Source: an uncultured Candidatus Saccharibacteria bacterium (lineage in GTDB: Bacteria > Patescibacteriota > Minisyncoccia > Phycocordibacterales > UBA5272). From it: a stretch of 64,000 bases of DNA. The notes below the pieces were generated by a model. That model was not told the DNA's origin and made no database searches. It saw nothing but the letters and a program-made list of their open reading frames with translations. The DNA is taken from contig CAYXKW010000003.1 of assembly GCA_964464695.1 (NCBI GenBank), forward strand, positions 10,577-74,576. Reading direction: 5' to 3'. A program made the position numbers and the translations under genes. This document shows, piece after piece, positions 24,254 to 54,736 of the stretch; position 1 is the stretch's first letter; every line of letters begins with the position of its first letter.

Positions 24254-24255
24254 CT

Positions 24256-25893: not shown

Positions 25894-25917
25894 TAACTTA
25901 CTTCTTTAGAAAATACT

Positions 25918-25947
25918 AAAAGTCACAAACAATTGTTTGTGACTTTT
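25918..25947. terminator. perfect 30-bp palindrome / terminator hairpin
   Basis: aaaagtcacaaacaattgtttgtgactttt. Confidence 0.5.
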
Positions 25948-26007
25948 AGTATTTTCTAATAACAACCAAACCCTTTCCTAACCTAACTATATGATACACT
26001 ACACATC

Positions 26008-28896: not shown

Positions 28897-28899
28897 CAT

Positions 28900-29643: not shown

Positions 29644-29846
29644 AACCCCGAAAGACACCAGATGTCGGACCGCTTTGCTAACAGACAGTCAGAAAAAATA
29701 CTACGTCACTATTATTTAATTCTAGTTTTATAGCCAGAAGTCTGACAGTCTGTTTGTCGGACGTCTGAATGTACTTGTGCCCACCAAACAAAACATGTGA
29801 GCTAAAGGCTACCGGCTAAAAGCTAAAAGCTGTATACTATATACAT

Positions 29847-30278: not shown

Positions 30279-30359
30279 ATTTATTGTTATAGCCTAAAAA
30301 ATATAAATTGTTAAGTACTGCACAGTTTTGAAGTACATTCTCATGTATACTGTACGTAT

Positions 30360-31001: not shown

Positions 31002-31006
31002 CAACT

Positions 31007-33804: not shown

Positions 33805-33857
33805 AAACCATACACCTTCTTTGAAGATGGGTATTTGTTGATATACTACACACAAAC

Positions 33858-34718
33858 ATGGCCTCATATACGCAACTCGAACCTGCTGCATTTCAATCAT
33901 TGGGAATAACTACTAACACTTCCTTTAATGGCGCAGATGTTTCATTCTTCACCACAACCTCCTTTCTCTATACCTTATGTTTTATTGCAATAGTAGGAGC
34001 TGCATTTTATAGATATGTACTTGTAGGGGTATACAGAATGGAAGCGTCCGAGAGTGGAATACGAAAGAGTAATGAGACATTTAAAAAGACGACTCTTGGA
34101 TTACTTGGGGTGTTCGCACTTTTTTTGATTATTGCGACGTTGAATAGTCAGTTGTTGACGGGGAATGTGGGATTAGAGGAACTTCAATCAAAACCTGCAG
34201 CCCCTGCAGCACCAGTTACTCAGTCATCCGGAGGAACGACAGGAACAAATCCCATTGCACAAGCTCCTTCTGGAGTAACAAATCCTACAATTCCAACTAA
34301 CAATAATGACCCCGTAGGTTGGGGGGCAATTAGTGCTGATCCAGTTGTAAGAACCCAGTTAAGATCATTGCCAAATGGTGGAATAACCGTAAACAAGAAT
34401 GTTTGCCAAGCTCCAACCCTAACCCAATGCACAACAGTTGGTGGTTGGCCAGCAGAAACTCCTTCAATGTTGGCTACATTAAGACAGACTTGTGGTGGTA
34501 ATATTGAAGTTACAGGAGGGACTGAAGCTGGACACTCATCACACGGACCTGGTAGAACAGCCGTTGATCTTTCGTTAAATGACTCAACTCTCGAAGCTTG
34601 TATTAGATCTTTTCCTGTTGGACCTCAAAAAAGTTTCTGTAGGGTCACCTATATTAAATTTGGTTATCTTTTTTGTGATGAGTTAGGTGTTAGACATTGG
34701 CACGTTTACCAACAGTAG
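33858..34718 (+). CDS. membrane protein: two-helix (pilin-like) N-terminal module fused to M15-like (LAS-type) zinc peptidase domain
   Basis: Two TM helices separated by loop RMEASESGIRKSNETFKKTT. The C-domain has SSHGPGRTAVDL (close to the LAS/M15 S.H..G.A.D motif) and a terminal HWH (H.H). The N-module is nucleotide-identical to the paralog at 36091-37077. Confidence 0.5.
   Translation: MASYTQLEPAAFQSLGITTNTSFNGADVSFFTTTSFLYTLCFIAIVGAAFYRYVLVGVYRMEASESGIRKSNETFKKTTLGLLGVFALFLIIATLNSQLLTGNVGLEELQSKPAAPAAPVTQSSGGTTGTNPIAQAPSGVTNPTIPTNNNDPVGWGAISADPVVRTQLRSLPNGGITVNKNVCQAPTLTQCTTVGGWPAETPSMLATLRQTCGGNIEVTGGTEAGHSSHGPGRTAVDLSLNDSTLEACIRSFPVGPQKSFCRVTYIKFGYLFCDELGVRHWHVYQQ
33935..34172 (+). repeat. 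238-bp segment, 100% identical to 36165-36402 (direct repeat inside two paralogous genes)
   Basis: Read directly. gatgtttcattcttcaccacaacc...gggaatgtggga is identical in both copies. Flanks diverge immediately. Confidence 0.9.
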
Positions 34719-34792
34719 AATCAGACAGCTGCCACTATGCTCTATAGCTAGAGTTCTCTCAGTTCTGTTATAATCTCTGCTATACTTCTCAT

Positions 34793-36088
34793 ATGGAAAA
34801 TAATAGTAATCGTCGAATACTTTTTGCAGTTGGGTTCGTTATGTTTTTTTCGGTGATTATTATTATTTGGTACTTTTTTTATGCTAAACCAATAATTGCC
34901 CCAACACTTTCTGAGACAAATAATCCTTTTCCTGTTAAACAACTTCCTCCACGATTTCAATTTCTTAACTGGGGAGGGGAAGCTTCCACTTCAACAACAG
35001 AAGTAACTGATCCACTTTCTGTACCACTTGTGAGAATTTGGGATAAGCCAGCAACAGGTCAAACATTTATTACTCAAAATATACTACAAGAAATTACTTC
35101 AACAAGCACAGAGGGGACAACAACTATACAAGTAAAGAAAACAGTTCGTGCCACTTCAACGGTTGTTTTATTCGTTGACAGAACTACCGGATACATATAC
35201 GGATATCCAGTAGAAACAGGAAAACCTTACCAGATAAGTAACACAATTCTACCTGGAATACATGATGCTTACTTTTTTGAAAATGGTAAAAAAGTAATCA
35301 TGAGATATCTTGACCAAGATAAGAATAGGATAGTCGGAGTAATTGGCACACTCCCAAATGTTAAAGATAACGAAATGGCTTTACCTCTTACAAATATTCA
35401 ATACCTATCATCTCAAGTGACCAGTATTGCAACTAACGAAAAGAAAGATACAATTTCTTATATTGTTGCAAATGACAATGGAAGTGCTATATACACAATC
35501 GGAACTAAAGGCCCTGTTCTTGTAACCTCATCACCATTTAAAGAATGGGAGCTCTCCTACGGAGGGGATTCTCTCTACGTAACGACAAAACCTTCAGCAT
35601 ATAGTAACGGTGTAACCTTATCAGTTCCGTCATTTCAGCCTGAAATAACTGAGAAGACAGGTCTACTAAGTACCCCGACTTCTGGAAAAGTAATGTTACA
35701 CAGCATGTGGGGGTCTCAAGGACTTGCAACATTTATATCAGATGTATCTGGTATAAAGATACTCAATATAAAAACACTGGCGTCCAAATGTTCATGGGGT
35801 GAGAGAAAATTTTTAGTGTGTGCTGTTCCACGAATACTCCCTCGAGCAGTTGAAGGGTTACCTGATGACTGGTACCAAGGGAGGGTTTCATTTACTGATG
35901 ATCTCTTTATTATTGAGCAAACAACGGGTGAAAAATATCCATTATACAATTTTAAAGATGATGATGATGGGGTTTTTGATGTTACAAATATTTCTTTTTC
36001 TACTGCTAACACGTATTTTAGTTTTAATAACAAAAAAGATGCAAGTTTGTGGATGATTAATACTTCACTTCTTGGTGGAGATCAATAG
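34793..36088 (+). CDS. hypothetical bitopic membrane protein with large extracytoplasmic domain (431 aa)
   Basis: N-terminal TM ILFAVGFVMFFSVIIIIWYFFYA. The rest is hydrophilic with many Ser/Thr. Confidence 0.5.
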   Translation: MENNSNRRILFAVGFVMFFSVIIIIWYFFYAKPIIAPTLSETNNPFPVKQLPPRFQFLNWGGEASTSTTEVTDPLSVPLVRIWDKPATGQTFITQNILQEITSTSTEGTTTIQVKKTVRATSTVVLFVDRTTGYIYGYPVETGKPYQISNTILPGIHDAYFFENGKKVIMRYLDQDKNRIVGVIGTLPNVKDNEMALPLTNIQYLSSQVTSIATNEKKDTISYIVANDNGSAIYTIGTKGPVLVTSSPFKEWELSYGGDSLYVTTKPSAYSNGVTLSVPSFQPEITEKTGLLSTPTSGKVMLHSMWGSQGLATFISDVSGIKILNIKTLASKCSWGERKFLVCAVPRILPRAVEGLPDDWYQGRVSFTDDLFIIEQTTGEKYPLYNFKDDDDGVFDVTNISFSTANTYFSFNNKKDASLWMINTSLLGGDQ

Positions 36089-36090
36089 GT

Positions 36091-37077
36091 ATGGTACAGT
36101 ATCAACCTCTCGAACCCTCCTCATTCCAGTCATTAGGAATTACTTCTCCTTCCTTCAACGGAGAAGATGTTTCATTCTTCACCACAACCTCCTTTCTCTA
36201 TACCTTATGTTTTATTGCAATAGTAGGAGCTGCATTTTATAGATATGTACTTGTAGGGGTATACAGAATGGAAGCGTCCGAGAGTGGAATACGAAAGAGT
36301 AATGAGACATTTAAAAAGACGACTCTTGGATTACTTGGGGTGTTCGCACTTTTTTTGATTATTGCGACGTTGAATAGTCAGTTGTTGACGGGGAATGTGG
36401 GACTGTCTGATCTTACTGTGAACGGTGTTAGATCTGGTGCAGCAGTAACCAATCCAATAAATACTCAAGTAAACACAGGCTCAGGGAGTGGTAGTAGCTC
36501 GCGATCGTGTGAAACAACCGAAGCAACAATCACTAAACTTACTTCCACTGGTGGTATTTGTGGTGGGACAGCATGTACTATTTTATCCGGTTGTAACTAC
36601 CAACAGTACTCGTCAATTATAGATCAAGAAGTTGCAGGTAATACTGATCTTAGAAAGATGATAATTGTAACTATGTGCAAAGAGTCTCGAGCGCAGGTAA
36701 ATGCTGCAGGAAATAATCCAAATGGAACGTTTGATTGTGGGCTAATGCAAATCAATCAACCAACTCCATGTGACGCAACTATTTTAAACCCTGCAGAAAA
36801 TATTCGTCGAGGAGTAGCACTTATGAAAGAAAAAATAAGACTTACTTCTCAAACATATCAAAATATACCTGCAGAAACTGGACCTTTTTCATCGTACAAT
36901 TGCTGTGCAAACGGCACTGTTCCAAATGCTCCAAGTGCTGATTGTACTACCGCTAATGGCTTTCCTTTTGCGATCCCTAAATGGGCATGTCCAATCAACC
37001 CAGGAGAGAGTTCTTCAAATATGTGTACTGTAAAAAATTACGCTTGTGAGCTGAGTGTCTGTATGAAGCAACTATAA
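36091..37077 (+). CDS. membrane protein: the same two-helix N-terminal module fused to a lytic transglycosylase (SLT) domain, VirB1-like function
   Basis: SLT signature MCKESRAQVNAAGNNPNGTFDCGLMQINQ...AENIRRGVALM (catalytic E-S, GLMQ). N-terminal 80 aa identical to ORF 33858-34718. Confidence 0.6.
   Translation: MVQYQPLEPSSFQSLGITSPSFNGEDVSFFTTTSFLYTLCFIAIVGAAFYRYVLVGVYRMEASESGIRKSNETFKKTTLGLLGVFALFLIIATLNSQLLTGNVGLSDLTVNGVRSGAAVTNPINTQVNTGSGSGSSSRSCETTEATITKLTSTGGICGGTACTILSGCNYQQYSSIIDQEVAGNTDLRKMIIVTMCKESRAQVNAAGNNPNGTFDCGLMQINQPTPCDATILNPAENIRRGVALMKEKIRLTSQTYQNIPAETGPFSSYNCCANGTVPNAPSADCTTANGFPFAIPKWACPINPGESSSNMCTVKNYACELSVCMKQL
36165..36402 (+). repeat. second copy of 238-bp identical direct repeat
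   Basis: See 33935-34172. Confidence 0.9.
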
Positions 37078-37218: not shown

Positions 37219-38082
37219 TTATCTATGTTTTTTGTATTTCTTATTTCTCTTATCCTTTTTACCAGATGAGTGAATTTCTTCTTTAACTTCTTTAACAATT
37301 TCTAGCCCTTCTTCTTCAACTTCCTTAATAACATCAAATGCTTCACCTCTAATGAGAGGAGGGGCAAGGTGGGCCAATTTTCGCTTCATATGAACATCTA
37401 GAGCGTAACTTGCTGTGTTACTGATGAACCAGTAGAGGCCAAGGGCAGAGGGAAGAGCCATCGCTGAAACTGCGATAATAATTGGAAGAACATACAATAA
37501 CTGTATCTTCATAGACTTCATAAAATGAGCCTGGAAAGATTCTTTATCTTTATTATTCTGAGAGCCACTCATATCCATAGTTTGTGTCTGACGACGAGCC
37601 AAGAAATAGGAAGAAATGCCTGCAAGAAGTGCAATTACTATATTCTTTTCTGTTACGTCAAAAACACCAAAGGCTACAGTATGTAGAGATTCTGGGAAAG
37701 TCACAAATGAATAAATAGACTTTGGATCATCAATCAATCCTTTAGAGAAAACGATATAGAGTGCAATAAATATTGGAATCTGTAATATCATCGCAAACAA
37801 AGAAGAAAAAGGATTTATTTTCTGTGTTCTATAAAGTGCAACCATCTGCTTAGACGCACCTTGTGGGTCTGTTTTCTGCATTTCCTTAATCTTATTCATT
37901 TCAGGTTCAATCTTCTTCATCATGTACTGCGTACGAAGAGCAGACATGTTAAATGGAAGTAAAATTGCCTTTACAATAAGGGTTACAATAACAATTGCTG
38001 CTCCAATATCATGAAGAGGGACAAAAGTAAGTACTATAACAAGGAGGTTATAGACTGGTTCGTAAAATAGTGTGTGGAACAT
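37219..38082 (-). CDS. yidC: membrane protein insertase YidC (short form) with Lys-rich C-terminal tail
   Basis: LLPFNMSALRTQYMMKKIEPEMNKIKEMQKTDPQGASKQMVALYRTQKINPFSSLF is the canonical YidC/Oxa1 core. C-terminal KKDKRNKKYKKHR ribosome-binding-type tail. Confidence 0.85.
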   Translation of the reverse strand: MFHTLFYEPVYNLLVIVLTFVPLHDIGAAIVIVTLIVKAILLPFNMSALRTQYMMKKIEPEMNKIKEMQKTDPQGASKQMVALYRTQKINPFSSLFAMILQIPIFIALYIVFSKGLIDDPKSIYSFVTFPESLHTVAFGVFDVTEKNIVIALLAGISSYFLARRQTQTMDMSGSQNNKDKESFQAHFMKSMKIQLLYVLPIIIAVSAMALPSALGLYWFISNTASYALDVHMKRKLAHLAPPLIRGEAFDVIKEVEEEGLEIVKEVKEEIHSSGKKDKRNKKYKKHR

Positions 38083-38084
38083 AA

Positions 38085-38399
38085 TTAATGTAGTGTATCA
38101 AATGCTTTCTGTATTTCCTCCTGCAATAACCTAAAAGGGGCCGTTTGACTATTCTTTTTAGGATAAAAAATAAATGAGTAAGGAGAAGGAGGTTTGATTG
38201 TGATAAGTATACTAAATATCCTTCTTTTTATAAGATTCCTGTCTACTGCACGTTTTAAGGTTTTTTTTGAAGTCACACAGGCAACCTTTTGTGTTTGAAG
38301 GGTTACACCTGCAACATCAAATAATTCACCACGAAAAAAGACTTTTGGTCTTTTTTCGTTAAAATCTTCTTTAGTGAGTCGCTTCGACTTTGGAAGCAT
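38085..38399 (-). CDS. rnpA: ribonuclease P protein component
   Basis: LPKSKRLTKEDFNEKRPKVFFRGELFDV...KRAVDRNLIKRRI is the RnpA RNR-like motif. Position between rpmH and yidC. Confidence 0.8.
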   Translation of the reverse strand: MLPKSKRLTKEDFNEKRPKVFFRGELFDVAGVTLQTQKVACVTSKKTLKRAVDRNLIKRRIFSILITIKPPSPYSFIFYPKKNSQTAPFRLLQEEIQKAFDTLH

Positions 38400-38422
38400 A
38401 TTTAAAAATCAGATAAGAAAGC

Positions 38423-38557
38423 TTAAACAGAAAGCTTTTTACGTCCAATACTTCGACGACGAGCAAGGACTTTACGTCCTCCTTTTGAAGCCATACGTAC
38501 GAGAAAACCGTGTGTTGTTGCTCGCTTCTTTTTCTTAGGTTGGTATGTGATTGACAT
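38423..38557 (-). CDS. rpmH: 50S ribosomal protein L34
   Basis: Not in the ORF track (44 aa). Minus-strand translation is [44 protein letters not shown], canonical L34. Confidence 0.9.
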
Positions 38558-38749
38558 GGCGGTATTCTACAGGAATATTGATAATAAATCAACTAAGTGT
38601 AGATTCTAGAAAATAGAATGTAGAATACAGATACAATATATATTTCTATATTTTTAAAAAGTTTTTCTATATTCTATACTCTAATATCTAGACTCTATCT
38701 ATACGTCAAGTTGTGACAAATTTTCACACGTGTATACTAACAGGTAACT
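38558..38749. other. candidate oriC region (rpmH-dnaA intergenic, AT-rich, short TAGAAT / TCTATA-type repeats)
   Basis: Conserved gene order rpmH-rnpA-yidC / dnaA-dnaN. The 192-bp spacer is very AT-rich with repeated tagaat, tctata and ctatac units. No perfect TTATCCACA boxes seen. Confidence 0.4.
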
Positions 38750-40087
38750 ATGGATTATCTACAACTTTGGAATAGCGCTTTATCCCAGATTGAGATAGAA
38801 CTTTCTCGAGTTAACTTTAATACGTGGTTCAAAAATACTCGTATTATTGATTACAAAGATGGAGAGGTTACAATTGGTGTTCCTAATGAGTTCGTTAAAG
38901 ATTGGCTCAATCAGAAATATCATAAGTTTATTTTAAGAATTCTAAGAACTATTCATGAAGGGGTTCGTTCTGTTGTCTTTACGGTTGTAAAACCAGAGGC
39001 TCTTCAAAAGAAGGCTCAACATATTACAATTACTGGTCAAACACTCCCACTTCAGGATTTATATATCAATAAAGATGATGGTCTTAATCCACGATATACC
39101 TTTGATACTTTTATCGTTGGTTCTTTTAATGAAGTAGCATATGCTTGCTCTCAAGCAGTTATTAATGGTTTAGGAATTGTTTATAATCCTTTGTTTATTT
39201 ACGGCAGTACAGGGCTTGGAAAGACACACCTCATGCAAGCAATGGGGAATACCATTAAGAAAAAGTATCCAGATAGAAAAGTTTTTTATACATCCATTGA
39301 AAAATTCTACATGGACTATGTAAGTGCAACGAATTTGAATAAAATAAATAGTTTTAAAGAAAAATATAGAAAATTTGATGTCTTTATTATGGATGATATT
39401 CAATTCATTAATGGGAAAGAACGTACTCAGGATGAACTTTTCCATCTATTTAATGCTTTATATGAAATGAATAAACAAATTATTTTTTCATCAGATAAAC
39501 ATCCTAATTTAATTACAGGGTTAGAAGATAGATTACGTTCACGTTTTAATCATGGAATGATTGTTGATGTTAATATTCCATCAGTAGAATCAAGACTTGC
39601 GATCTTGCAATCAAAAACAAAAGATCATCGAGAAAAAATTCCGCATGAGGTTCTTCAATATATTGCAGATACAATTCAAGGTAATATTCGTGAACTAGAA
39701 GGGGTTATGACTTTAATTCTTGGACATATTCAAATTAAACAGCAAGCAATTTCACTTCTTGATGTTAAAAATCTCCTTAAAAATAGTGTACGAGCGAAAA
39801 AAAGTATATCTATTCCAGAAATAGTAAAAATAATTTCAGAATACTATCATATTCCTGATGTTTATATTTATAACAAGACTCGTAGAAAAGATGTTGTAAA
39901 ACCTCGTCAAATTGTTATGTATATTTTACGAGAAGATTTTGATATTTCTTATCCAATGATTGGTGATAGATTAGGAGGTCGTGATCACACTACCGTAATT
40001 CACTCGTATGAAAAAATAAAAGGATTACTTAAAGATAATCCTCAACTTTCCAGAGAAATTGAAGACATTCGAGCAATGTTAGTCTAA
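38750..40087 (+). CDS. dnaA: chromosomal replication initiator DnaA
   Basis: AAA+ Walker A GSTGLGKTHLMQA. Walker B FIMDDIQF. Sensor and box VII regions. C-terminal DNA-binding domain (VMYILRE...GGRDHTTVIHS). Confidence 0.95.
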   Translation: MDYLQLWNSALSQIEIELSRVNFNTWFKNTRIIDYKDGEVTIGVPNEFVKDWLNQKYHKFILRILRTIHEGVRSVVFTVVKPEALQKKAQHITITGQTLPLQDLYINKDDGLNPRYTFDTFIVGSFNEVAYACSQAVINGLGIVYNPLFIYGSTGLGKTHLMQAMGNTIKKKYPDRKVFYTSIEKFYMDYVSATNLNKINSFKEKYRKFDVFIMDDIQFINGKERTQDELFHLFNALYEMNKQIIFSSDKHPNLITGLEDRLRSRFNHGMIVDVNIPSVESRLAILQSKTKDHREKIPHEVLQYIADTIQGNIRELEGVMTLILGHIQIKQQAISLLDVKNLLKNSVRAKKSISIPEIVKIISEYYHIPDVYIYNKTRRKDVVKPRQIVMYILREDFDISYPMIGDRLGGRDHTTVIHSYEKIKGLLKDNPQLSREIEDIRAMLV

Positions 40088-40353
40088 ATATCTACTCAAT
40101 TGAGTAGATATTTTAATTTAATTTTGGAACTGTGGAAATCTCTGTGTATAACCAATCAACAACATAGTAATAACCTACTTAGTTATCCTTTTAATAATTA
40201 TAGAATTCATAGTTTTACACACATTTTGAATTCTGTATCTAATTACTAAAGATAATTGATTTCTAAATTATTATTATTTTATAAAGGTTTTATCTTTATC
40301 AACATCATCCCCAGACCTATACTTAGTATTATATTTTATATATACTAATACCT
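40088..40353. other. dnaA-dnaN intergenic region: terminator-like palindrome plus AT-rich region with degenerate DnaA-box-like 9-mers (second oriC candidate)
   Basis: Palindrome atatctactcaattgagtagatat at 40089-40112. TGTGGAAAT (about 40131) is 2 mismatches from TGTGGATAA. Also TTATCCTTT and TTATCTTTA. Confidence 0.35.
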
Positions 40354-41445
40354 ATGAAATTCGAATGTAAAGGAGAAGTGTTTATTCAAGCAGTTCAACA
40401 AGTGTCTCGAGCTAAGAGTAAAACTCAATCACAACAATCACTACAAGATATTCATATTGAGGTAATTAATCATCTTCTAACATTACGTGCTACTAACTTA
40501 GAATTATTCTGTGAGAAGAGTATTCCTGTAAAAGGAATTGTTAATGGTGCATGTTTACTACAAGGAGAAACACTTCTTAGAATTATTTCTACATTTAATT
40601 CAAAAGATATAACTCTTACCTGTGAAATTATTGATGGAGTTTTTACTATTACAACAGAAAAGGGGGTTATTGAAATAAAAACAACACCATATGAAGATTT
40701 TCCAACACTACCTTCTCAAGGTGAACAGATAGGAATTCTTCCAAAAGAATCTATTGATATGTTATTACGTGAAGTTTCTTTTTGTTCAGCAACAACAGAT
40801 ATAAAACCAGAAATATCTTCTGTGTATATTTATACAAAAGATAGTTCTATTTATGCTGTTGCAACAGATTCTTATCGCCTTGCAGAAAAAACAATTCCTA
40901 ATAATAATGATTTAGATTTTTCATTTCTTATTCCTCAAAAACACATTGGTGAAATTCTTCAAATTTTAAATGAAGAAGAAGGGGATATTATGATTTCTCG
41001 TAATCAGAATATTGTTACCTTTTCAGGAACAACTTTAACACTTTCTATCCATACTGTTACTGGTCATTTCCCTGATTACAGACAACTTTTTCCAAAAGAA
41101 TTTACTACAAATGTGCTTGTTTCAAAAAGTGAATTACAAAAAGCTCTTTTACTAACAACATTTTTTAATGAACAATATTCTCAAGTTGAATGTATTTTTA
41201 CAGAAAATAAATGTACTGTTCATAGTAAAAGTGAAAGAGTTGGACAAGTAACTCATACAATAGAAGTAAAAAAAGAAGGGGAAGATATCGAAGTAAAATA
41301 TAATAATAAATTCTTCTTAGAAGTTCTCCCTCATATTGAAGGTGGTCTTGTTACGTGTATGTTCACAACACCTAATAAACCACTATTTATTCAAAGCAAG
41401 CAAGATATTAGTTTTACGTATCTTTTGATGCCACTAAACAGATAA
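40354..41445 (+). CDS. dnaN: DNA polymerase III beta sliding clamp
   Basis: 363 aa. Three-domain clamp pattern. Position directly after dnaA. Confidence 0.85.
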   Translation: MKFECKGEVFIQAVQQVSRAKSKTQSQQSLQDIHIEVINHLLTLRATNLELFCEKSIPVKGIVNGACLLQGETLLRIISTFNSKDITLTCEIIDGVFTITTEKGVIEIKTTPYEDFPTLPSQGEQIGILPKESIDMLLREVSFCSATTDIKPEISSVYIYTKDSSIYAVATDSYRLAEKTIPNNNDLDFSFLIPQKHIGEILQILNEEEGDIMISRNQNIVTFSGTTLTLSIHTVTGHFPDYRQLFPKEFTTNVLVSKSELQKALLLTTFFNEQYSQVECIFTENKCTVHSKSERVGQVTHTIEVKKEGEDIEVKYNNKFFLEVLPHIEGGLVTCMFTTPNKPLFIQSKQDISFTYLLMPLNR

Positions 41446-41448
41446 TGT

Positions 41449-41682
41449 ATGAATGAAGGGCTTTTTGAAAAGTATTCAAAAGTACTTAAAGAGAAAAAAT
41501 CAGAAAAAGAAGAGCTTATAGGTATATTACAAGAAATAACTGGAATTATGTTTACACCTCAAGAATTGAGTATTACAAAGAAGTGTATTTCATTTCAAAC
41601 AAGCTCTGTTAAAAAAAGTATTGTACGTCAAAAACGAATTGAGGACGCGTTACAACAAAAAGGGTATAGTATTAAAATATAA
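41449..41682 (+). CDS. small hypothetical protein downstream of dnaN (77 aa)
   Basis: Start 4 nt after the dnaN stop. Basic and acidic mix. No motif I can name. Confidence 0.4.
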   Translation: MNEGLFEKYSKVLKEKKSEKEELIGILQEITGIMFTPQELSITKKCISFQTSSVKKSIVRQKRIEDALQQKGYSIKI

Positions 41683-41687
41683 GATAT

Positions 41688-41720
41688 AAAAAAACGTAGT
41701 ACTTGGTACTACGTTTTTTT
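41688..41720. terminator. bidirectional terminator between the dnaN operon and convergent PBP gene
   Basis: aaaaacgtagtac-ttg-gtactacgttttttt. Confidence 0.6.
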
Positions 41721-43933
41721 TATTGAACTGTTGTGGTCGCTATTTGAACAGGGTAGATAGGGTTTGTTTGTGTTGGATCAAATGATGTACTTCCGTTGTT
41801 TTGTACTGGTGGTTGGTATCCGCAAGCAAGAGGATGAGTAGATAACCAATTCTGGAGAGATGTCTCCCATAACCAGTACTGAGAATCGGAAGTTGGGTTG
41901 AATGGATATTCTCCTCCAGGATTACTTTTTACAACAGATGCAAGGATAGTATGAATACCATTGCTTCCACAGTACTGACCGCGTAATATTGGCTTAGACG
42001 AGGTGTTAGGAAGTGGATCAGGGAAATACTCAACTGGAGTGTTTTCTACTGCTGCATCCATAGCTTTTCGCCAAACAGGGGCAAGTACGAATCCAGCTGT
42101 CCTTTTATCAATTGGTGTATTATCATTATTACCTGCCCACATACCAACAACAACTGAAGGAGTGTATCCAACCACCCACACATCCTTGTAGTCATTCGTT
42201 GTTCCTGTTTTTACAGCTACTGGTCGGTTTTTAAAATACAAAGAAGAATTTGCTCCATAACTTGGAGTTCGTGCTACGTTATCAGAAAGCATGCTTGAAA
42301 TGAGAGTGGTAACTTCTTCAGGAAGAACTTCTGTTTGAGAAAGTGAAAATTTTTCCAAAATACTATCATCTCTGTCGCGCACTTCTAGTATTCCTTGTTG
42401 TTTATGATAGACGCCATTATTTGCAAATACTCCATAAGCATTAGTAAGTTCAAGTAAAGTAACTTCACCACCACCAAGTACAAGTGATAATCCATATCGA
42501 GAAGCATCCACAATAGTAGATAATCCCATTGCTTGAGCAAGTGAAACTGCATTATTTAGCCCTGTAAGATACAACAATTTAACAGCAGGAACGTTAAGTG
42601 ATTGAGCTAGAGCCTCACGTAATGAAACTGGTCCTCTAAATAGTCCGTCATAATTATCAGGCATATAACAGACAGATGGATTTGTTCCAGAATTAATTGG
42701 TTTTCCATAAGCATCACATAATGTACTAAATTGTGTAGGAGTATCAAATAAAACTGTTTCAGGGGTGTATCCAACTTTCATAGCGGCCGCGTATACAATT
42801 GGCTTAAAAGAAGATCCAGGCTGACGAAATGCTGTAGTTATATTAAACTGCCCTGGGATTTCTTTATCAAAAAAATCTCGTGAACCAACCATCGACAATA
42901 TTTGTCCTGTTTTTGGATCAATTGCAATTAGTGCTGAATTATCCGCTTTATATTTTTTAGCATTTTCAAGAGCTCCTTCTTTTACTATTTTCTCCGCTTG
43001 CTCTTGTAGAGGATAATCAATTGTTGTAATTACCTTTAATCCACCATTTAAAACAGTATCAATACCATATTTTTCTTCAAGATATTCTCTGATATACATT
43101 ACAAAGTGAAGCGCTTTCCCACTATTAGATAAATCTTTTTCAAAGGTAACAGATTCTTTTTGTGAGAAGTTTTTTTGTTCAAGTGTAATATGTCCAAGTT
43201 CATACATTCGCTGGAGCACTAAGTTTTTTCTTTTCTCTAAGTCATCTCGATGTTTTCCATATGGAGAATAATATGTTGGGGCTTGTGGTAGAGCTGCTAA
43301 ATACGCTGCTTCTGTTAAGGTAACATCCTTTGCTTTTTTATTGAAAAAAGTAAGAGAGGCTTCTTCAACCCCATACATAGTTCCACCATATGGACTTTCA
43401 TTTAAATATATTTGTAAAATAGTATCTTTCGGAAGTTCTCTGTCTAATTTAATCGATAGAATTATCTCTTTTAGTTTACGAGAAATAGTTTTTTCACGTG
43501 TTAAGAGAGCATTTTTAACAACTTGTTGATTAATGGTTGACCCACCTTGTGCATATCCACCGGAAGTAACATTTGCGAGAGCTGCACGAATAAAAGATGT
43601 TGGTCTGAATCCATAATGTTCATAAAAATGAGCATCTTCAATAGAAATAGTTGCTTTTTGGATATATGGACTAATGTCTTTAATATCAATTGCAGTACGA
43701 CGAACATTATCATGGATGTTATACAGAACTATTTTCCCAGTTCTGTCATAAATTTTTGTAGAATTAATAATATTTCTATTTTCAAAGTTATTAAAATCTG
43801 GTAATTGAATAGTAGAAAGCCACGCAACTACAAGAGCTGAGGCAACAACACCTAAAGAAAGGGTAATTAAAAATAATTCCTTTAAAAACTTACCCTTTAC
43901 GCGCTTTTTTCTAAATACATGAGAATCTGACAT
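41720..43933 (-). CDS. mrcA: bifunctional class A penicillin-binding protein (GT51 glycosyltransferase + transpeptidase)
   Basis: N-terminal TM. GT51 motif SIEDAHFYEHYGF. Transpeptidase motifs SSFKP, SLN and KTGTT. Confidence 0.85.
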   Translation of the reverse strand: MSDSHVFRKKRVKGKFLKELFLITLSLGVVASALVVAWLSTIQLPDFNNFENRNIINSTKIYDRTGKIVLYNIHDNVRRTAIDIKDISPYIQKATISIEDAHFYEHYGFRPTSFIRAALANVTSGGYAQGGSTINQQVVKNALLTREKTISRKLKEIILSIKLDRELPKDTILQIYLNESPYGGTMYGVEEASLTFFNKKAKDVTLTEAAYLAALPQAPTYYSPYGKHRDDLEKRKNLVLQRMYELGHITLEQKNFSQKESVTFEKDLSNSGKALHFVMYIREYLEEKYGIDTVLNGGLKVITTIDYPLQEQAEKIVKEGALENAKKYKADNSALIAIDPKTGQILSMVGSRDFFDKEIPGQFNITTAFRQPGSSFKPIVYAAAMKVGYTPETVLFDTPTQFSTLCDAYGKPINSGTNPSVCYMPDNYDGLFRGPVSLREALAQSLNVPAVKLLYLTGLNNAVSLAQAMGLSTIVDASRYGLSLVLGGGEVTLLELTNAYGVFANNGVYHKQQGILEVRDRDDSILEKFSLSQTEVLPEEVTTLISSMLSDNVARTPSYGANSSLYFKNRPVAVKTGTTNDYKDVWVVGYTPSVVVGMWAGNNDNTPIDKRTAGFVLAPVWRKAMDAAVENTPVEYFPDPLPNTSSKPILRGQYCGSNGIHTILASVVKSNPGGEYPFNPTSDSQYWLWETSLQNWLSTHPLACGYQPPVQNNGSTSFDPTQTNPIYPVQIATTTVQ

Positions 43934-47746: not shown

Positions 47747-48033
47747 AAATAGGGGGTTTGGTCAAGATTTGACAAAAGTTTTATATATGCTATAATAGAC
47801 ACATCACTACGGAATTAATGGTAATTACGGACATGATTGTGTGACTTTGTCAGAACCTATATATCTCTAAACAATCGGGGTTTTACCCCATCTTCTAATT
47901 CGAAGGACGATCTGGTTGCACTTGTTGCCTCTGTGTCTATCCTTATGAAGGAATTTTCTTCACCAAGGGGTTGCTTAGAGGTATATATGCTGTGGCAGTG
48001 TAAAGTTCATAAAGTAAAAAGTTTATAAAGTGA

Positions 48034-48072
48034 ACACAAGAAGGAGTGGCCGAAGGCCACTCCTTCTTGTGT
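48034..48072. terminator. strong terminator hairpin downstream of pilB (minus strand)
   Basis: acacaagaaggagtggcc-gaa-ggccactccttcttgtgt, an 18-bp perfect stem. Confidence 0.6.
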
Positions 48073-48119
48073 TTGCTTCTACTTTTAACTTTACAAACTT
48101 TCTAACTTTCAACTACTCA

Positions 48120-50264: not shown

Positions 50265-50939
50265 ATGAAAACCTTTGCTAAAATGGCTTTCGTACTTGCT
50301 TTGGCCTTTGGTTCGCAGTTCGCTTCGGCGGTCTGCTTCCAGAATCCGAGCCCAATTCCGTACGGAACTGGCCCACTTCACCCTGTAAACGGCCTCTGGT
50401 GTACCGAAAGGCCCATCCAGAACCAAGGCTTTGGACAACAACAAGTCATTGTTCAACAGCAAGTCGCTGTACCACAGCAGGTGCAGCTCGTGCCTGTCCA
50501 AGGAGTCCCGAACCAATTTACTTCCGGCGGCAATGTCTACAACTGCTCCACACTGAGAAGTGTGGTTGGTGGTGTGCTGGGCGCTGTTGGAGGGCATTTG
50601 GTTGGTAAGAACATTACCACACGAGGTCACAACCTCGGCGGTCTTGGTGCAATTGGAGGAGCTGTCGCAGGTAGTCAAATTGCTTGCGAATTGGCAGGTC
50701 CTCAGTCTGTCCAGCAAATAAATGTTGTAAGACAAGGAGTTTCTGGCGTTTCTGGAGTTCCTTCGACAACAGTTGTTGCAGGCCGTCAAAAACCTCCTCC
50801 TCCACCTGCTGGCAATTGGACTTGCAACTTTTCGCAGAATGGTCAAATCACCGAAACGGTGATGACGACAGATGATGCGACTTGCAGGGACTGGACGAAG
50901 GCAGTGGCGGTCTACAAAGGTCTGATCGCAGCGAATTAA
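50265..50939 (+). CDS. secreted Q-rich glycine-zipper protein with C-terminal Cys-bracketed motif (224 aa)
   Basis: Signal peptide MKTFAKMAFVLALAFGSQFASA. Q-rich segment. Glycine zipper VVGGVLGAVGGHLVG...LGGLGAIGGAVAGS. PPPPP. C-terminal NWTCNFSQNGQITETVMTTDDATCRDWT shared with ORF 51125-52120. Confidence 0.6.
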   Translation: MKTFAKMAFVLALAFGSQFASAVCFQNPSPIPYGTGPLHPVNGLWCTERPIQNQGFGQQQVIVQQQVAVPQQVQLVPVQGVPNQFTSGGNVYNCSTLRSVVGGVLGAVGGHLVGKNITTRGHNLGGLGAIGGAVAGSQIACELAGPQSVQQINVVRQGVSGVSGVPSTTVVAGRQKPPPPPAGNWTCNFSQNGQITETVMTTDDATCRDWTKAVAVYKGLIAAN

Positions 50940-51124: not shown

Positions 51125-52120
51125 ATGGTCACAGCGTCTAAGGAGGCGCTACAAATGACAAATCCAAAAACCGTCCCCGCGACCCCTGCACCCCGCGCCT
51201 CGCGTGCAAAACCTGCACAAGTGGCTGCACCTGGAGCAGTCGTTCAGCAGAAGACGAGCATGACCGCATGGGTGGCCTTGGCTGCTGTGGTGATGCTTGC
51301 CATCATCATTGCCGCCTGGAAGTTTGGACCGATTGGTTCTGACAATCCTGCACTCGGTTCTTCGGAACCGAGCAAGGCTGTAGCAGTGAGCCAGTCTGCC
51401 GTCGTTGCTCCCGTGGATCATGTTGCAAAAGCTTCGGCTGTGGCGACAGTGGTTTGCGACAAGGACAACACTCAAACCGCGAAAGCGATTGGGAAGACAG
51501 CCTCTGCGGTGGCAACGTGTGGAAACACGAAGCCTGCTGTGCGGGTGGCAAAAGCTCCTGCAAAAGCTCCTGCAAAAGCAAGTGTTGCTCACGCAGCACC
51601 TGCCGGTATGAGCGCCGAAACCGTCCGCCGCATGGCTGACGAAAACATCGCTCGCCGGATCGCATCGGGGGTGAAAACCACCTCCGCAGCCGCTTCTTCA
51701 GGAATTTCGGGTATCCCGCGTTTTCCTGAAGAAGGGAAGGTCTACTCTGATGCCGAAGGTAACACCTTCGAACGTCATACTGGAGGCTCACGGTTGTGCA
51801 AGTTCTTCGTGAACGGTGAATTGGTCAGTCGTAAGTTTGTCCAAGATCCGGACCCACGGAAGAGCAAGGCGCAATGCGACCTTCTGGCCGCTGAGTTCAT
51901 CGCTGGACTCACTCCGACGACACCTGAAGCTATCGTAGCTGCGGCACCGCAAGTTGCACAAGCGCCACAAGCCGTGGTTGCAAGTGCTGGTTCAGGAAAC
52001 CATACTTGCAATCTGACCTTTGATGGCAAGATCGTGGAAACGGTCACAACCATCGATGACGCTGCTTGCAAGGTCTGGACCCGAAGCCGAGGTAAGGAAA
52101 AAGGCTGGATTCCGAAGTAA
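51125..52120 (+). CDS. Ala/Pro-rich single-pass membrane protein with two copies of the Cys-bracketed motif (331 aa), paralog of island gene 1
   Basis: TM WVALAAVVMLAIIIAAW. AKAPAKAPAKA. Motif copies LCKFFVNGELVSRKFVQDPDPRKSKAQCD and HTCNLTFDGKIVETVTTIDDAACKVWT. Confidence 0.55.
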   Translation: MVTASKEALQMTNPKTVPATPAPRASRAKPAQVAAPGAVVQQKTSMTAWVALAAVVMLAIIIAAWKFGPIGSDNPALGSSEPSKAVAVSQSAVVAPVDHVAKASAVATVVCDKDNTQTAKAIGKTASAVATCGNTKPAVRVAKAPAKAPAKASVAHAAPAGMSAETVRRMADENIARRIASGVKTTSAAASSGISGIPRFPEEGKVYSDAEGNTFERHTGGSRLCKFFVNGELVSRKFVQDPDPRKSKAQCDLLAAEFIAGLTPTTPEAIVAAAPQVAQAPQAVVASAGSGNHTCNLTFDGKIVETVTTIDDAACKVWTRSRGKEKGWIPK

Positions 52121-52187: not shown

Positions 52188-52234
52188 GGTAATTCGTAAA
52201 TATCCTGTATTTAAAGAAAGTCAACTACACCCCT

Positions 52235-52263
52235 TGACAAATGGTGTATATGTGTAGTATAAT
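52235..52263 (+). promoter_or_regulatory. perfect consensus sigma70 promoter (TTGACA-17-TATAAT) of repeat surface protein gene
   Basis: ccTTGACAaatggtgtatatgtgtagTATAATat read directly, 40 nt upstream of ATG 52304. Confidence 0.55.
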
Positions 52264-52303: not shown

Positions 52304-54661
52304 ATGAAAAACAAAATTACAACATTAGCAGTCGCACTTTCTATGGTTATAGGTGTATTTCCTGTGCAACTTTTTGCACAATATGATTACACATCATCGT
52401 ATTACTACGATACATCAGTAACTTCAAGTTATGATTACACTTCTCCAACAGTGTCATCTTATAACTACACAAGTCCAACAGTGAGTTCGTATGATTATGT
52501 ATCACCAACTGTTAGTTCATACAACTATACGTCACCAACCGTATCTAGTTACAACTACACAAGTCCAACAGTAAGTTCATATGATTACACTTCCCCAACA
52601 GTAAGTTCATATGATTACACTTCCCCAACAGTATCATCTTATAACTATACTTCTCCAACAGTAAGTTCATATGATTACACTTCCCCAACAGTGTCATCTT
52701 ATAACTACACATCACCTACAGTAAGTTCATATAATTACACAAGTCCGACAGTATCGTCATATAACTATACTTCTCCAACAGTAAGTTCATATGATTACAC
52801 TTCTCCAACAGTGTCTAATTACAACTACACTTCACCAGTAGGGACAGGTTACACAACTGGCTCAGGTAACACAAATACAAGTCCAACAGTATATAGTTAT
52901 GACTATACTTCAGCACCTACAGTATATAGTTATGATTACACGAACCCAGCAGGCTCTACATATGATTACACAGGCTCAACATATAATTATAATAGTCCAA
53001 CTGGTTCAACATATAATTACAACAACCCTGGGTACACTACTGGAGTTATTCAGACAACACAAACAGTTGCTCCAAGTTACAATTCATACCCAACAACATA
53101 TTCAACAGGTGTAACAGGAACTACATACACAACTATCCCTACAACAAATACTACTATTTGTTCAGACGGATATGCTCCAACAAATGGTTCATGTATAAGA
53201 ACTACAACGATCACAACTACTAACACTACTGTATGTTCAGATGGTTACGCTCCTACAAATGGATCATGCGTACGTACAAACACTATTCCAACTTCAAATG
53301 TAACAGTTTGTTCAGATGGATATGCCCCAACTAATGGCTCATGTATTCGTACAAGTACTATTCCTACAACAAATACAACTATCTGTTCTGATGGATTCGC
53401 TCCAACAAACGGAACATGTATTCGTACAAACACTATCCCAACTGTTAATCAGACTATCTGCTCAGATGGACGTGCACCAGTCAATGGATCATGTATTCGA
53501 ATCGTTTCAGTACCGACTGTTACGTACCAATCATGTTGGGATGGATCAGTTATTCCTACAACATCAGTGTGTGCTGCACAGTACAAAGTATGTGCTAACG
53601 GAACAAGTATTCCAGTTAACCAAGCATGTTATGTAGCATCTACTCCTGTGTATATCGCTCCACAAATTGTGAAATTCAACAACGTTGTAACAAGTGTTGT
53701 AACAGAAATTTCAAAGACAAGTGGAAGATGTAATGGAATTGGTCTTATTGCAAACAACGCTCCATCTACTGGATGGTTCGAATACGGTGAGACTTCTAAT
53801 CTTGGAAGAACAACTGCAACTGCAAATATTGGATCTGCAAACACCGCACCATTCTCAAATGTACTTACTAATCTTAAGCCTTCAACAAAGTACTACTGCC
53901 GCGCAGTGATGCAAAATCAGTATGGACTTGTGAAAGGGGAGATCGTTGGATTCGTAACTAAAGCAACGGTTGTAACTTATGTTAAGCCGGTTATTGTGAA
54001 GACACCAGTGAAGACTCCTGTAAAGACAAATATCATTACATGTTCAGATGGATCTACTGTTTCAACAAAGAGTACATCTTCTGCGACACTTCTAAGTCAA
54101 GGTGAAAAGTTAATGGCGGTACAGATTGAGAAGATTAATGGTAATCTCGTAAGTTCTGAAGAAGTTCGTTACAAGGTAACCTACAAGAACCTTGCTGATA
54201 CAAAACTCTCGGGTGTGTTACTTAAAGTAACGCTTCCACAAGAAGTAGTATTTGCAGGAGCAACTGCAGGAAACTATGATGTAACAACACGTACACTTAC
54301 TCTTAACCAAGATACTGTTGATCCATACACAGAAGGTGTTATCGTTATTACTGCAAATGTACAGAAGGATGCACCAATTGGAAAAACAATTGTAGCGAAT
54401 GTATACGCAGCCTACACAGTACCTGGTACTGCTACACAAGATGAAGTAACTGCATATGTTGTTGGGTCTATCATGCCATCAACTGCATACGCTAATCAAG
54501 ACACTGGTGCGAAGAAAGTTATCGGCGCACCAAGTGATAGAGGATTCATGCCAAATAGTTTAATCGAATGGCTTGCACTCCTTGCTATCCTCTTTATCAT
54601 CTTCATTCTAGGACGTAGTGTCTATGCATCATACAAAGATGATGAAAGTCACAAGCACTAA
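52304..54661 (+). CDS. tandem-repeat cell-surface protein (785 aa): signal peptide, about 18x 10-aa Y(D/N)YTSPTVSS repeats, about 6x 20-aa CSDGYAPTNGSCIRT repeats, globular region, C-terminal TM anchor
   Basis: Signal peptide MKNKITTLAVALSMVIGVFPVQLFA. Repeats read directly from translation. C-terminal hydrophobic anchor LIEWLALLAILFIIFILG followed by charged tail. Confidence 0.7.
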   Translation: MKNKITTLAVALSMVIGVFPVQLFAQYDYTSSYYYDTSVTSSYDYTSPTVSSYNYTSPTVSSYDYVSPTVSSYNYTSPTVSSYNYTSPTVSSYDYTSPTVSSYDYTSPTVSSYNYTSPTVSSYDYTSPTVSSYNYTSPTVSSYNYTSPTVSSYNYTSPTVSSYDYTSPTVSNYNYTSPVGTGYTTGSGNTNTSPTVYSYDYTSAPTVYSYDYTNPAGSTYDYTGSTYNYNSPTGSTYNYNNPGYTTGVIQTTQTVAPSYNSYPTTYSTGVTGTTYTTIPTTNTTICSDGYAPTNGSCIRTTTITTTNTTVCSDGYAPTNGSCVRTNTIPTSNVTVCSDGYAPTNGSCIRTSTIPTTNTTICSDGFAPTNGTCIRTNTIPTVNQTICSDGRAPVNGSCIRIVSVPTVTYQSCWDGSVIPTTSVCAAQYKVCANGTSIPVNQACYVASTPVYIAPQIVKFNNVVTSVVTEISKTSGRCNGIGLIANNAPSTGWFEYGETSNLGRTTATANIGSANTAPFSNVLTNLKPSTKYYCRAVMQNQYGLVKGEIVGFVTKATVVTYVKPVIVKTPVKTPVKTNIITCSDGSTVSTKSTSSATLLSQGEKLMAVQIEKINGNLVSSEEVRYKVTYKNLADTKLSGVLLKVTLPQEVVFAGATAGNYDVTTRTLTLNQDTVDPYTEGVIVITANVQKDAPIGKTIVANVYAAYTVPGTATQDEVTAYVVGSIMPSTAYANQDTGAKKVIGAPSDRGFMPNSLIEWLALLAILFIIFILGRSVYASYKDDESHKH
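52430..52860 (+). repeat. 30-nt tandem repeat array (encodes the Y(D/N)YTSPTVSS decapeptide, about 14 near-perfect plus several degenerate units)
   Basis: Period-30 nucleotide repetition with synonymous drift (e.g. tatgattacacttccccaacagtaagttca / tataactatacttctccaacagtaagttca). Confidence 0.85.
53138..53515 (+). repeat. 60-nt tandem repeat array (6 units encoding TNTTICSDGYAPTNGSCIRT-type 20-mers with paired Cys)
   Basis: Period-60 repetition read from sequence and translation. Confidence 0.85.
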
Positions 54662-54706
54662 AGTACGCTCATAAAGTTAATGCCTTATGTGAGCCGAAAG
54701 GTTAGA

Positions 54707-54736
54707 AAAGCGCGACCCGAAAGGGTCGCGCTTTTC
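54707..54736 (+). terminator. rho-independent terminator after surface protein gene
   Basis: aaagcgcgaccc-gaaa-gggtcgcgcttt followed by TC. Confidence 0.7.

Follow-up and report, generated by a model that had tools for sequence, protein, structure and literature searches.

A core gene of a Patescibacteria clade encodes a predicted envelope protein with a conserved base and a variable N-terminal repeat region

Introduction

Patescibacteria (candidate phyla radiation, CPR) are ultra-small, mostly uncultured episymbionts, and to our knowledge their surface molecules are largely unknown beyond type IV pili and the recently described Pam pili. A 64,000-nucleotide stretch of contig CAYXKW010000003.1 (GenBank assembly GCA_964464695.1, positions 10,577 to 74,576, forward strand), hereafter the window, carries at its positions 52304–54661 a gene for a protein with two arrays of tandem repeats, which we call the repeat gene. 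An earlier note on this DNA had read the product as a likely adhesin or S-layer-like protein with a repetitive stalk. The locus raises the question of what kind of surface protein this is, which part of it faces outwards and how stable its repeats are. We find that the repeat gene belongs to the vertically inherited core genes of a Paceibacteria/Nomurabacteria-like clade of Patescibacteria. We consider it rather probable that its product is an envelope protein, abundant and exported by the Sec pathway, that is held in the membrane by a type-I anchor and combines a conserved base with a hypervariable N-terminal tip exposed to the outside.

Architecture of the repeat protein

The repeat gene is a single uninterrupted open reading frame (ORF) on the + strand that encodes 785 amino acids (aa) followed by a stop codon. 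From the N-terminus to the C-terminus the protein comprises a signal peptide, Tyr-rich repeats, Cys loops, an FN3-like domain, a V/K/T/P-rich linker, a DUF11 domain and a transmembrane (TM) tail. The parts of the gene are listed below with their support, which includes Tandem Repeats Finder (TRF) and AlphaFold2 (AF2) models scored by the predicted local distance difference test (pLDDT).

52234–52263 (+): perfect sigma-70 promoter, TTGACA-N18-TATAAT, 40 nt upstream of the ATG (consensus scan)
52304–54661 (+): complete coding sequence, 785 aa plus stop (ORF listing and in-frame reading)
52304–52378 (+): Sec-type signal peptide, aa 1–25, MKNKITTLAVALSMVIGVFPVQLFA (sequence, AF2 helix at residues 2–16, likeness to orthologs)
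52379–52429 (+): degenerate lead-in of Tyr-rich units, QYDYTSSYYYDTSVTSS, aa 26–42 (in-frame reading)
52430–52819 (+): core of array 1, 13 units of 30 nt, aa 43–172 (TRF, which extends it to 52837, and in-frame reading)
52820–53131 (+): degenerate Tyr/Thr/Ser/Gly/Pro-rich continuation, aa 173–276, with SPTVYSYDYT twice and GSTY(D/N)Y three times (TRF row of period 21 at 52950–52989, and reading)
53132–53506 (+): array 2, five units of 75 nt, aa 277–401 (TRF and in-frame reading)
53507–53629 (+): two more, non-identical, family-conserved Cys loops, CWDGSVIPTTSVC and CANGTSIPVNQAC, aa 402–442, C411–C423 and C430–C442
53666–53968 (+): FN3-like β-sandwich, aa 455–555, with a probable C476–C532 pair; the most conserved part of the protein (AF2 pLDDT 78–91)
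53969–54028 (+): V/K/T/P-rich linker with VKTP repeats, aa 556–575 (TRF period 12 at 53996–54028; pLDDT <50)
54029–54478 (+): half Cys-loop hairpin with C580 (54041–54043), followed by the DUF11 Ig-like domain, aa ~598–725 (Pfam, AF2, alignment)
54545–54658 (+): conserved tail, consisting of the motif F-M-P-N-S-L-I-E-W, a TM helix (LALLAILFIIFILG), R771 and a charged cytoplasmic tail (alignment A1 and AF2 helix 753–782)
54705–54736 (+): terminator-like hairpin GCGCGACCC-GAAA-GGGTCGCGC followed by UUUUCG (dG -28.5 kcal/mol, z = -5.9)

The intact frame contains both repeat arrays described in the earlier note, and TRF, the check proposed there, detected the two of them with scores of 292–450 against a threshold of 30–50, far above chance. 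Array 1 was reported by TRF at 52430–52837 with a period of 30 nt, 12.6 copies and 71% matches, and its higher-order periods of 60, 90 and 120 nt outscore the 30-nt period. At the peptide level it consists of 13 clean decapeptides Y(D/N)Y(T/V)SPTVS(S/N) and one truncated unit, with degenerate Tyr-rich units on either side. The 30-nt period given previously thus holds, and the count of about 18 copies is reached only if the degenerate units are included. Ser makes up 23% of the array, Tyr 21%, Thr 20% and Pro 8%. Array 2 had been described as six 60-nt units encoding 20-mers, and this has to be revised to five units of 75 nt, or 25 aa (TRF: 53132–53501, 4.9 copies, 72% matches, reported as a 150-nt period as well). 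Each 25-mer reads TIPTTNTT(I/V)-CSDGYAPTNGSC-(I/V)RT(N/T/S) and contains a C-x10-C loop and two N-X-S/T sequons, and the units share 0.78 amino-acid and 0.71 nucleotide identity. The conserved Cys-loop motif noted before is present in every unit, CSDG(Y/F/R)AP(T/V)NG(S/T)C occurring five times. In alignment A1 the two further loops at aa 402–442 are conserved as QTCWDGSxIPxxSxC..QYKxCxNGTSxPVxQxC.

The protein contains 17 cysteines, of which 14 belong to the seven C-x10-11-C loops, two (C476 and C532) to the FN3-like domain and one, C580, stands alone. The array 2 units and Cys loops were modelled by AF2 as β-hairpins with pLDDT of 56–80. Extracytoplasmic disulfide machinery, namely an MdbA-like oxidoreductase and VKOR, is enriched in CPR, whose envelope is Gram-positive-like (PMC6744442), which makes disulfide-closed loops plausible here. 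All 20 N-X-S/T sequons lie within aa 54–432, the outer half of the protein. The Cys-loop region is enriched in them (11 observed vs 4.3 expected, P=0.0005) and the two sandwich domains have none (3.9 expected); array 1 contains 9 against 7.1 in shuffled sequences and so is not enriched. Eight NYT sequons lie in its N-variant units.

The signal peptide is probably cleaved before Q26, as judged from its sequence, and those of the orthologs likewise have a K-rich start, a hydrophobic core and an A-(Q/D/E) ending. The single globular domain proposed previously turns out to be two separate β-sandwich domains with the V/K/T/P linker between them. The FN3-like domain resembles FN3 at the level of fold only: in a scan of the fragment it gave a weak, sub-threshold match to Pur_ac_phosph_N (E=0.0055, 17.7 bits vs a cut-off of 30), and matches to fn3 and PhoD_N were confined to distant relatives (P0074–P0084). 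The second domain comprises eight strands over aa 604–722, modelled with pLDDT of 94–98. Its assignment to DUF11 (PF01345) is borderline for this protein, the C-terminal fragment scoring 25.6 bits against a gathering threshold of 24.6 (E=1.6e-5); the orthologs P0067 and P0056 match at 33.3 and 32.3 bits, and many orthologs were already annotated as PF01345 or TIGR01451. A Foldseek search of the full model against the PDB returned only generic tandem β-sandwiches (transglutaminase barrels, integrin alpha and RbmA, a biofilm protein with tandem FnIII domains). Whole-protein scans of Pfam and NCBIfam gave no match (full-length Pfam at E<=0.1), a sequence profile search of the PDB found no relative at E<=1, an exact-protein look-up found no identical record, Rfam had nothing in the repeat-gene locus and literature searches found no paper on this protein family.

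At the C-terminus the expected TM helix and charged tail are both present, and with the signal peptide, the paired Cys loops and the β-sandwiches they bear out the view that this is an exported, C-terminally anchored surface protein. In alignment A1, P750, L753, W756 and L769 are invariant and nine further tail positions are conserved in at least 90% of sequences. The hydrophobic segment followed by R771 (at least 90% conserved) has the hydrophobic/basic layout of LPXTG substrates, and five family tails run against the NCBIfam sorting-signal models (LPXTG, PEP-CTERM, PGF-CTERM, IPTL and others) had no match at E<=10. Of the window ORFs scanned against Pfam, which cover 64 kb of the genome except for a few ORFs at its 5' end, none was recognised as a sortase. 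A profile search among 1.84 billion representative sequences gave 1002 matches at E<1e-30 and 5256 at E<1e-10. Many of these are differently built proteins, with FN3-like arrays or other N-terminal domains, that end in the same series of FN3-like domain, DUF11, [FL][FLI]Px[ST]Lx[GE]W, helix and basic residue; the motif is present in 53 of 140 further top matches. It occurs on no other ORF of the window or of the loci L001–L072. From its sequence distribution the tail would be a general anchoring module of Patescibacteria surface proteins.

Orthologs, synteny and conservation

A search with aa 426–785 identified 73 strong homologs (E<1e-50), annotated as hypothetical proteins, with a few labelled as TIGR01451 family and one coming from Candidatus Pacebacteria. 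In a genome collection 70 loci were found, all in species-representative metagenome-assembled genomes of Patescibacteria labelled Paceibacterota, Nomurabacteria or Parcubacteria; the third-party annotation assemblies among them bear the label 'Saccharibacteria'. The orthologs share a common plan of signal peptide, aromatic repeats, Cys loops, QTCWDGS..C / CxNGTS..C loops, FN3-like domain, linker, DUF11 and tail. The window gene has every feature by which we defined the family: Cys loops, CW(D/N)GS loops, the FN3-like and DUF11 domains, an F(L/M)PxSLxEW tail and a position directly upstream of tsaE-polA.

Among 45 complete orthologs the total length varies from 588 to 977 aa, the N-terminal region from 50 to 309 aa and the number of Cys loops from 2 to 24; the segment that begins at the FN3 motif and ends at the C-terminus measures ~256 aa throughout. 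The N-terminal region keeps its composition, with 10–28% aromatic residues, 54–74% S/T/G/N/D/P and K+R close to zero, and its repeat motif is different in nearly every species (WDTTSGGNYTGG, GSWSTTYPTYDT, YDYNYGGTT, IDTTGGNSGW, YDPITTYPT, WNTGYPDYTDT and SPTYSxxGYT are examples). Closer relatives have units of the YxYT(S/A)PxVSx type in other copy numbers, the same unit pattern giving 14 units in one relative (locus L003) and 20 in another (L005).

The gene order in the window is dnaA (38750–40087), dnaN, PBP1, a TyrS/TrpS-class synthetase, RuvC, RuvB, PilB, two small ORFs, the repeat gene, TsaE and PolA, and from dnaN onwards it is the same in two NCBI assemblies. The repeat gene is directly followed by TsaE and PolA in 65 of 65 loci. 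PilB is found upstream of it in divergent orientation in 42 of 44, and the slot of 1.7–4.6 kb between PilB and the repeat gene has a variable content. Across 75 loci the identity of the C-terminal module is correlated with that of PolA with r=0.97, which shows that the gene is inherited vertically. Horizontal transfer of the gene was considered and rejected, because its GC content of 0.383 equals the window average and its divergence tracks that of PolA. A functional link to PilB or a type IV pilus was also rejected: the protein lacks a prepilin-type signal and the slot between the two genes varies in content, and for these reasons the adjacency of PilB is taken as conserved housekeeping synteny.

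The identity of the C-terminal module to its orthologs ranges from 30 to 84% and is unevenly distributed. Mean identities are 74% for the FN3-like domain and 73% for the TM tail, compared with 69% for PolA, 67% for PilB, 56% for TsaE and 53% for DUF11. Conservation of a β-sandwich domain and a TM helix above that of DNA polymerase I is unexpected for a passive stalk and anchor, and these sequence data point to conserved partners for both. Such a partner could be the protein itself, another component of the envelope or a processing enzyme.

Codon usage and stability of the repeats

All 78 pairs of the 13 core units of array 1 were compared codon by codon. They show 351 synonymous and 66 non-synonymous codon differences; nearly all of the latter represent the D/N toggle at position 2, and 83 of the codon differences are switches of Ser between TCN and AGY. 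The mean nucleotide identity between units is 0.71–0.73, with an almost invariant peptide. For units with identical amino-acid sequence it is 0.79, against 0.75 expected if synonymous codons were picked randomly according to their frequency in the gene, so that synonymous sites are near saturation. The earlier statement that the units show synonymous drift and are not recent slippage copies is thus well founded, with one exception: unit 8 has the same sequence as unit 12, and a 40-nt stretch, the longest exact internal repeat, recurs at a distance of 120 nt, which indicates that a few four-unit (120-nt) blocks were duplicated recently.

Nucleotide identity within array 1 (0.71) equals its identity to the related L003 array of another species (0.70), and no positional orthology was found between the units of the two arrays. 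Concerted evolution and ongoing homogenisation are therefore not in evidence. Either purifying selection holds the peptide while the DNA drifts, or arrays with scrambled codons are those that survive recombination. The locus had been called a hotspot for length variation, which is true between species (588–977 aa); in the sense of ongoing slippage it is not supported. Nor does it have the form of a contingency locus, since the 30- and 75-nt units are multiples of 3, are 71–73% identical at the nucleotide level and contain no exact repeat longer than 40 nt. This last figure also makes collapse or expansion by short-read assembly less likely than with perfect repeats, and the strong differences between its units allow short reads to assemble through array 1. 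In a metagenome scan for relatives of the same species the best identity was 82–84%.

Promoter, terminator and genomic position

The perfect sigma-70 promoter of the repeat gene is one of four matches to the full consensus in the 64-kb window. It is conserved in the family: within 150 nt upstream of the orthologs a 12/12 match is present in 30 of 46 cases and a match of at least 11/12 in 40 of 46, compared with 13 of 365 random 150-nt windows. The hairpin at 54705–54736 was missed by a consensus terminator scan owing to its short T-run. With its own promoter and a terminator hairpin the gene looks monocistronic. It lies 12–14 kb from dnaA and dnaN on the same strand, and from the conserved consensus promoter, the origin-proximal position and the co-orientation with dnaA we infer that the product is very abundant.

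GC content falls to 0.30–0.32 at 38001–42000, around dnaA (38750–40087) and dnaN (40354–41445), so the replication origin is probably within the window, 12–14 kb upstream of the repeat gene.

Neighbouring genes and other features of the window

The two small ORFs between pilB and the repeat gene, orfA (50265–50939, +, 224 aa) and orfB (51125–52120, +, 331 aa), each contain six cysteines. OrfA has a signal peptide, a Q-rich region and a glycine zipper; OrfB is Ala-rich with an N-terminal TM segment; and the two share the C-terminal motif N.TCN...G.I.ETV.T.DDA.C..W. Both genes are GC-rich (GC 0.52 and 0.56, GC3 0.45 and 0.52, vs 0.23–0.32 in neighbouring genes), and each is served by a promoter of its own, with a perfect or 11/12 consensus match, and by a strong terminator. 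Homologs of orfA were found in 8 loci and of orfB in 6; the equivalent slot is GC-rich in L001 and holds unrelated ORFs in L002.

Another perfect sigma-70 promoter lies in the ruvB–pilB intergenic region (47769–47796, +) and is followed after ~220 nt by a long hairpin at ~48017–48109, which had only spurious miRNA-type matches in Rfam and no family at threshold. A 63-aa ORF with a TTG start spans 47837–48028, and the element at 47769–48109 could be a small RNA or encode a small protein. A further perfect consensus promoter (5988–6017, −) precedes a 213-aa ORF without a Pfam match (5329–5970, −). At 21791–37077 (+) about ten consecutive same-strand ORFs without a Pfam match, mostly with signal peptides or TM segments, are arranged around a VirB4/TraG-like P-loop ATPase (31007–32836) and include a paralogous pair (33858–34718 and 36091–37077); this block looks like a type IV secretion or conjugation-like apparatus. 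The region 13869–18185 (+), with an unusually high AT skew of 0.24–0.27, encodes a 1438-aa Glu/Lys-rich, apparently coiled-coil protein without a Pfam match and with one hydrophobic segment (aa 1264–1287). Among the relatives, loci L015 and L043 are on the same 53-kb contig (CAZNZQ010000005.1), which has two copies of the locus in opposite orientations, both encoding the identical 737-aa product, and represents either an inverted duplication or a palindromic assembly artefact.

Discussion

In the reading that we prefer, the C-terminal TM helix, following the F(L/M)PxSL(I/V)EW interface motif, would fix the protein in the cytoplasmic membrane, and DUF11, the V/K/T/P linker, the FN3-like domain and seven disulfide-stapled β-hairpin loops would form a base or shaft through a Gram-positive-like wall; in an extended state the shaft would measure about 25–30 nm. 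The Tyr/Ser/Thr-rich, acidic, K/R-free N-terminal repeats would then be displayed at the outer end. The earlier note had called array 1 a stalk, which conflicts with this topology because the array is the part of the protein farthest from the anchor, a tip and not a membrane-proximal segment; the term stalk, if used at all, would suit the Cys loops with the FN3-like and DUF11 domains. The conserved base, in particular its FN3-like domain and its TM tail, may serve a lineage-wide interaction such as self-assembly or binding to a component of the cell's own envelope. The tip would be an exposed interaction surface in which selection keeps composition and periodicity, that is, aromatic residues spaced by turn-forming or small polar residues, and leaves motif, period and copy number free to turn over between species. 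Judged from its sequence, the tip may act in contact with hosts, surfaces or polysaccharides, or form a hydrated coat.

Several points weigh against this reading. The expression, localisation and binding of the protein are predictions from its sequence, and the strength of the promoter is judged from the consensus match alone. Pfam and NCBIfam scans found no recognised adhesive domain, and a core, single-copy gene with a highly conserved base is atypical of classical accessory adhesins. C580, an invariant and odd 17th cysteine in a 'CSDG' half-loop between the linker and DUF11, is left over when all other cysteines are paired, and might form an intermolecular disulfide. The two models of the tip are also in conflict. 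With the family alignment, AF2 left the N-terminal 260 residues at pLDDT of ~35 with no secondary structure, whereas the single-sequence model of aa 26–276 has, for each decapeptide, an eight-residue strand TVSSY(D/N)YT and an S-P turn with pLDDT of 77–91, which would place T/S/Y/Y on one face and V/S/(D|N)/T on the other. AF2 can over-predict regular β structure for perfect repeats, so the β-repeat model may be an artefact of this kind. Foldseek found no structural neighbour of the repeat-only model in the PDB, with nothing at E<6. A search of ten decapeptide units against a set of 5.8 billion proteins gave no candidate and is uninformative, since the L003 ortholog does carry the motif.

The same base could instead belong to an S-layer or coat protein, its FN3-like and DUF11 domains self-assembling into a lattice that the C-terminal helix fixes to the membrane, as in archaeal S-layer glycoproteins, with the repeats decorating the outside. 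The family-wide consensus promoter, the core, single-copy and syntenic nature of the gene, the conservation of the FN3-like domain above PolA, which suggests a protein-protein interface, and the combination of signal peptide, β-sandwiches, C-terminal TM anchor and sequons confined to the outer half would all suit a lattice protein. We nevertheless think it unlikely, as the globular part is limited to two small domains (~100 and 125 aa), over half of the protein is repetitive or modelled with low confidence, Pfam and NCBIfam scans show no SLH, PGF-CTERM or other S-layer signature, and Foldseek matches are limited to generic tandem β-sandwiches. Another reading of the C-terminus is that F(L/F)Px(T/S)Lx(G/E)W, the hydrophobic helix and the basic residue form a sorting signal that is cleaved by a sortase-like or other enzyme, leaving the mature protein covalently attached to the wall. 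Its tripartite layout resembles that of LPXTG signals, P750, L753 and W756 are invariant, the same tail is found on differently built FN3/DUF11 proteins, and more than half of CPR genomes contain sortases (PMC6744442). According to the same study sortases are patchy outside Microgenomates, however, the five tails matched no curated sorting model, and the motif has no Gly after T/S. No sortase was among the window ORFs scanned, and the motif is on no other protein in the window or the 72 loci. The unusually conserved residues within the helix suggest that it is retained and interacts with something, and cleavage accordingly seems doubtful to us.

A model that builds on the earlier note, with array 1 as a disordered, heavily glycosylated, mucin-like spacer in a classical adhesin whose length varies by slippage, agrees with the Ser/Tyr/Thr/Pro-rich composition, the low pLDDT of the alignment-based model, the length differences among species and the eight NYT sequons. 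An array that is distal to the anchor cannot space anything from the cell, however, and its sequons are no more frequent than in shuffled sequences, its units are 71% identical in nucleotide sequence without concerted evolution, the window ORFs scanned include no glycosyltransferase, and the single-sequence model shows an ordered β repeat; we hold this model to be improbable. That the repeat count or the frame is not real, through misassembly or decay into a pseudogene, is a concern in so far as arrays trouble assemblers and the repeat region of relatives is often at contig ends or N-runs (L004, L014, L018, L060, L070–L072). With an intact 785-aa frame that has a start, promoter and terminator, the same architecture in 70 genomes, strong purifying selection and no exact repeat longer than 40 nt, it is very improbable.

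The preferred reading of a membrane-anchored envelope protein could be taken further, to a major surface determinant of the whole Patescibacteria clade in which three new elements are joined. The tail would be a Patescibacteria-wide anchoring or sorting signal, F(L/F)Px(T/S)Lx(G/E)W plus helix, always coupled to DUF11 and read by a novel partner or enzyme; the FN3-like domain, constrained beyond PolA, would organise the envelope; and the distal repeats would form a Tyr/Trp-ladder β-solenoid or meander without a PDB counterpart, as a rapidly re-invented, species-specific recognition face whose nucleotide units are kept 'codon-scrambled' so that the array resists recombination. Taken as a whole we regard this extended proposal as speculative, with the odds clearly against it.

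The protein is of a known kind, that of repeat-bearing, C-terminally anchored bacterial surface proteins with Ig-like domains, and its family is uncharacterised, with two repeat types and a tail motif that are covered by no model. It is related to DUF11 (PF01345)/TIGR01451 surface proteins through its membrane-proximal Ig-like sandwich (aa ~598–725), but has a single DUF11 copy in place of an array, and its Tyr-rich repeats, Cys loops and tail fit no model; DUF11 itself is without an established function. Gram-positive LPXTG proteins of the MSCRAMM (microbial surface components recognizing adhesive matrix molecules)/Sdr type share the signal peptide, Ig-like domains, tandem repeats and a C-terminal motif with hydrophobic and basic segments. 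The repeats of Sdr/Clf proteins serve as wall-proximal spacers for an N-terminal ligand-binding domain, whereas here the repeats are N-terminal, the motif is FMPNSLIEW and not LPXTG (the NCBIfam models fail), and the gene is core and syntenic, not accessory. Archaeal S-layer glycoproteins of the Haloferax PGF-CTERM type are similar in their β-sandwiches, C-terminal anchor, sequons and Thr/Ser-rich segments; the present protein is bacterial, has no PGF motif or archaeosortase signal and far fewer globular domains, and its Ser/Thr-rich region is distal, not juxtamembrane. Choline- or cell-wall-binding repeats, the RTX β-roll and mussel Mefp-1 resemble array 1 in composition and period only (9–12 aa periods, spaced aromatics, turn-formers): it had no Pfam match to PF01473 or RTX, and the GW..YY and GGxGxD consensus sequences are absent.

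Among proteins described in the literature, the Blastomyces adhesin BAD-1 has 41 copies of a tandem repeat, each a 17-aa loop with WxxWxxW that is closed by one disulfide between conserved cysteines (PMC3708853). Array 2, with its 25-aa period and C-x10-C, is similar in this one-disulfide design; BAD-1 is fungal and unrelated in sequence, and the present protein has 5+2 loops, its motif being CSDGxAPxNGSC with two sequons in each unit. PamR, encoded in the Pam pilus operon of CPR bacteria (Saccharimonadia and Microgenomatia), has RbmA-like tandem FnIII domains and a C-terminal TM helix (bioRxiv 10.64898/2026.03.03.709456). The likeness, drawn from its description and not from a sequence comparison, lies in two tandem FnIII/Ig-like sandwiches followed by a C-terminal TM helix, RbmA being among our Foldseek matches; PamR differs in having no repeat arrays according to the text, and no pam-like chaperone or pilin genes flank the repeat gene in the loci inspected. 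Fibrillar adhesins combine a stalk of repeated domains, an adhesive domain and an anchor (Monzon & Bateman, PMC8286594, whose main text does not mention DUF11). Of these features the repeat protein has stalk-like elements and an anchor, and no known adhesive domain was found in it.

A core gene near the origin with a consensus promoter, a conserved base and a species-specific tip makes its product a prime candidate for a dominant envelope or contact protein, and a good but unproven candidate for how these cells meet hosts or surfaces. It offers a concrete target for metaproteomics, labelling in cryo-electron tomography and recombinant binding studies, and its repeat region may be usable as a strain or species marker. 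Perfectly conserved peptides whose synonymous variation is close to saturation also illustrate clearly, in a natural setting, how the DNA of long protein repeats can be kept stable. Finally, the tail motif could allow the anchored 'surfaceome' of Patescibacteria to be predicted from sequence alone.

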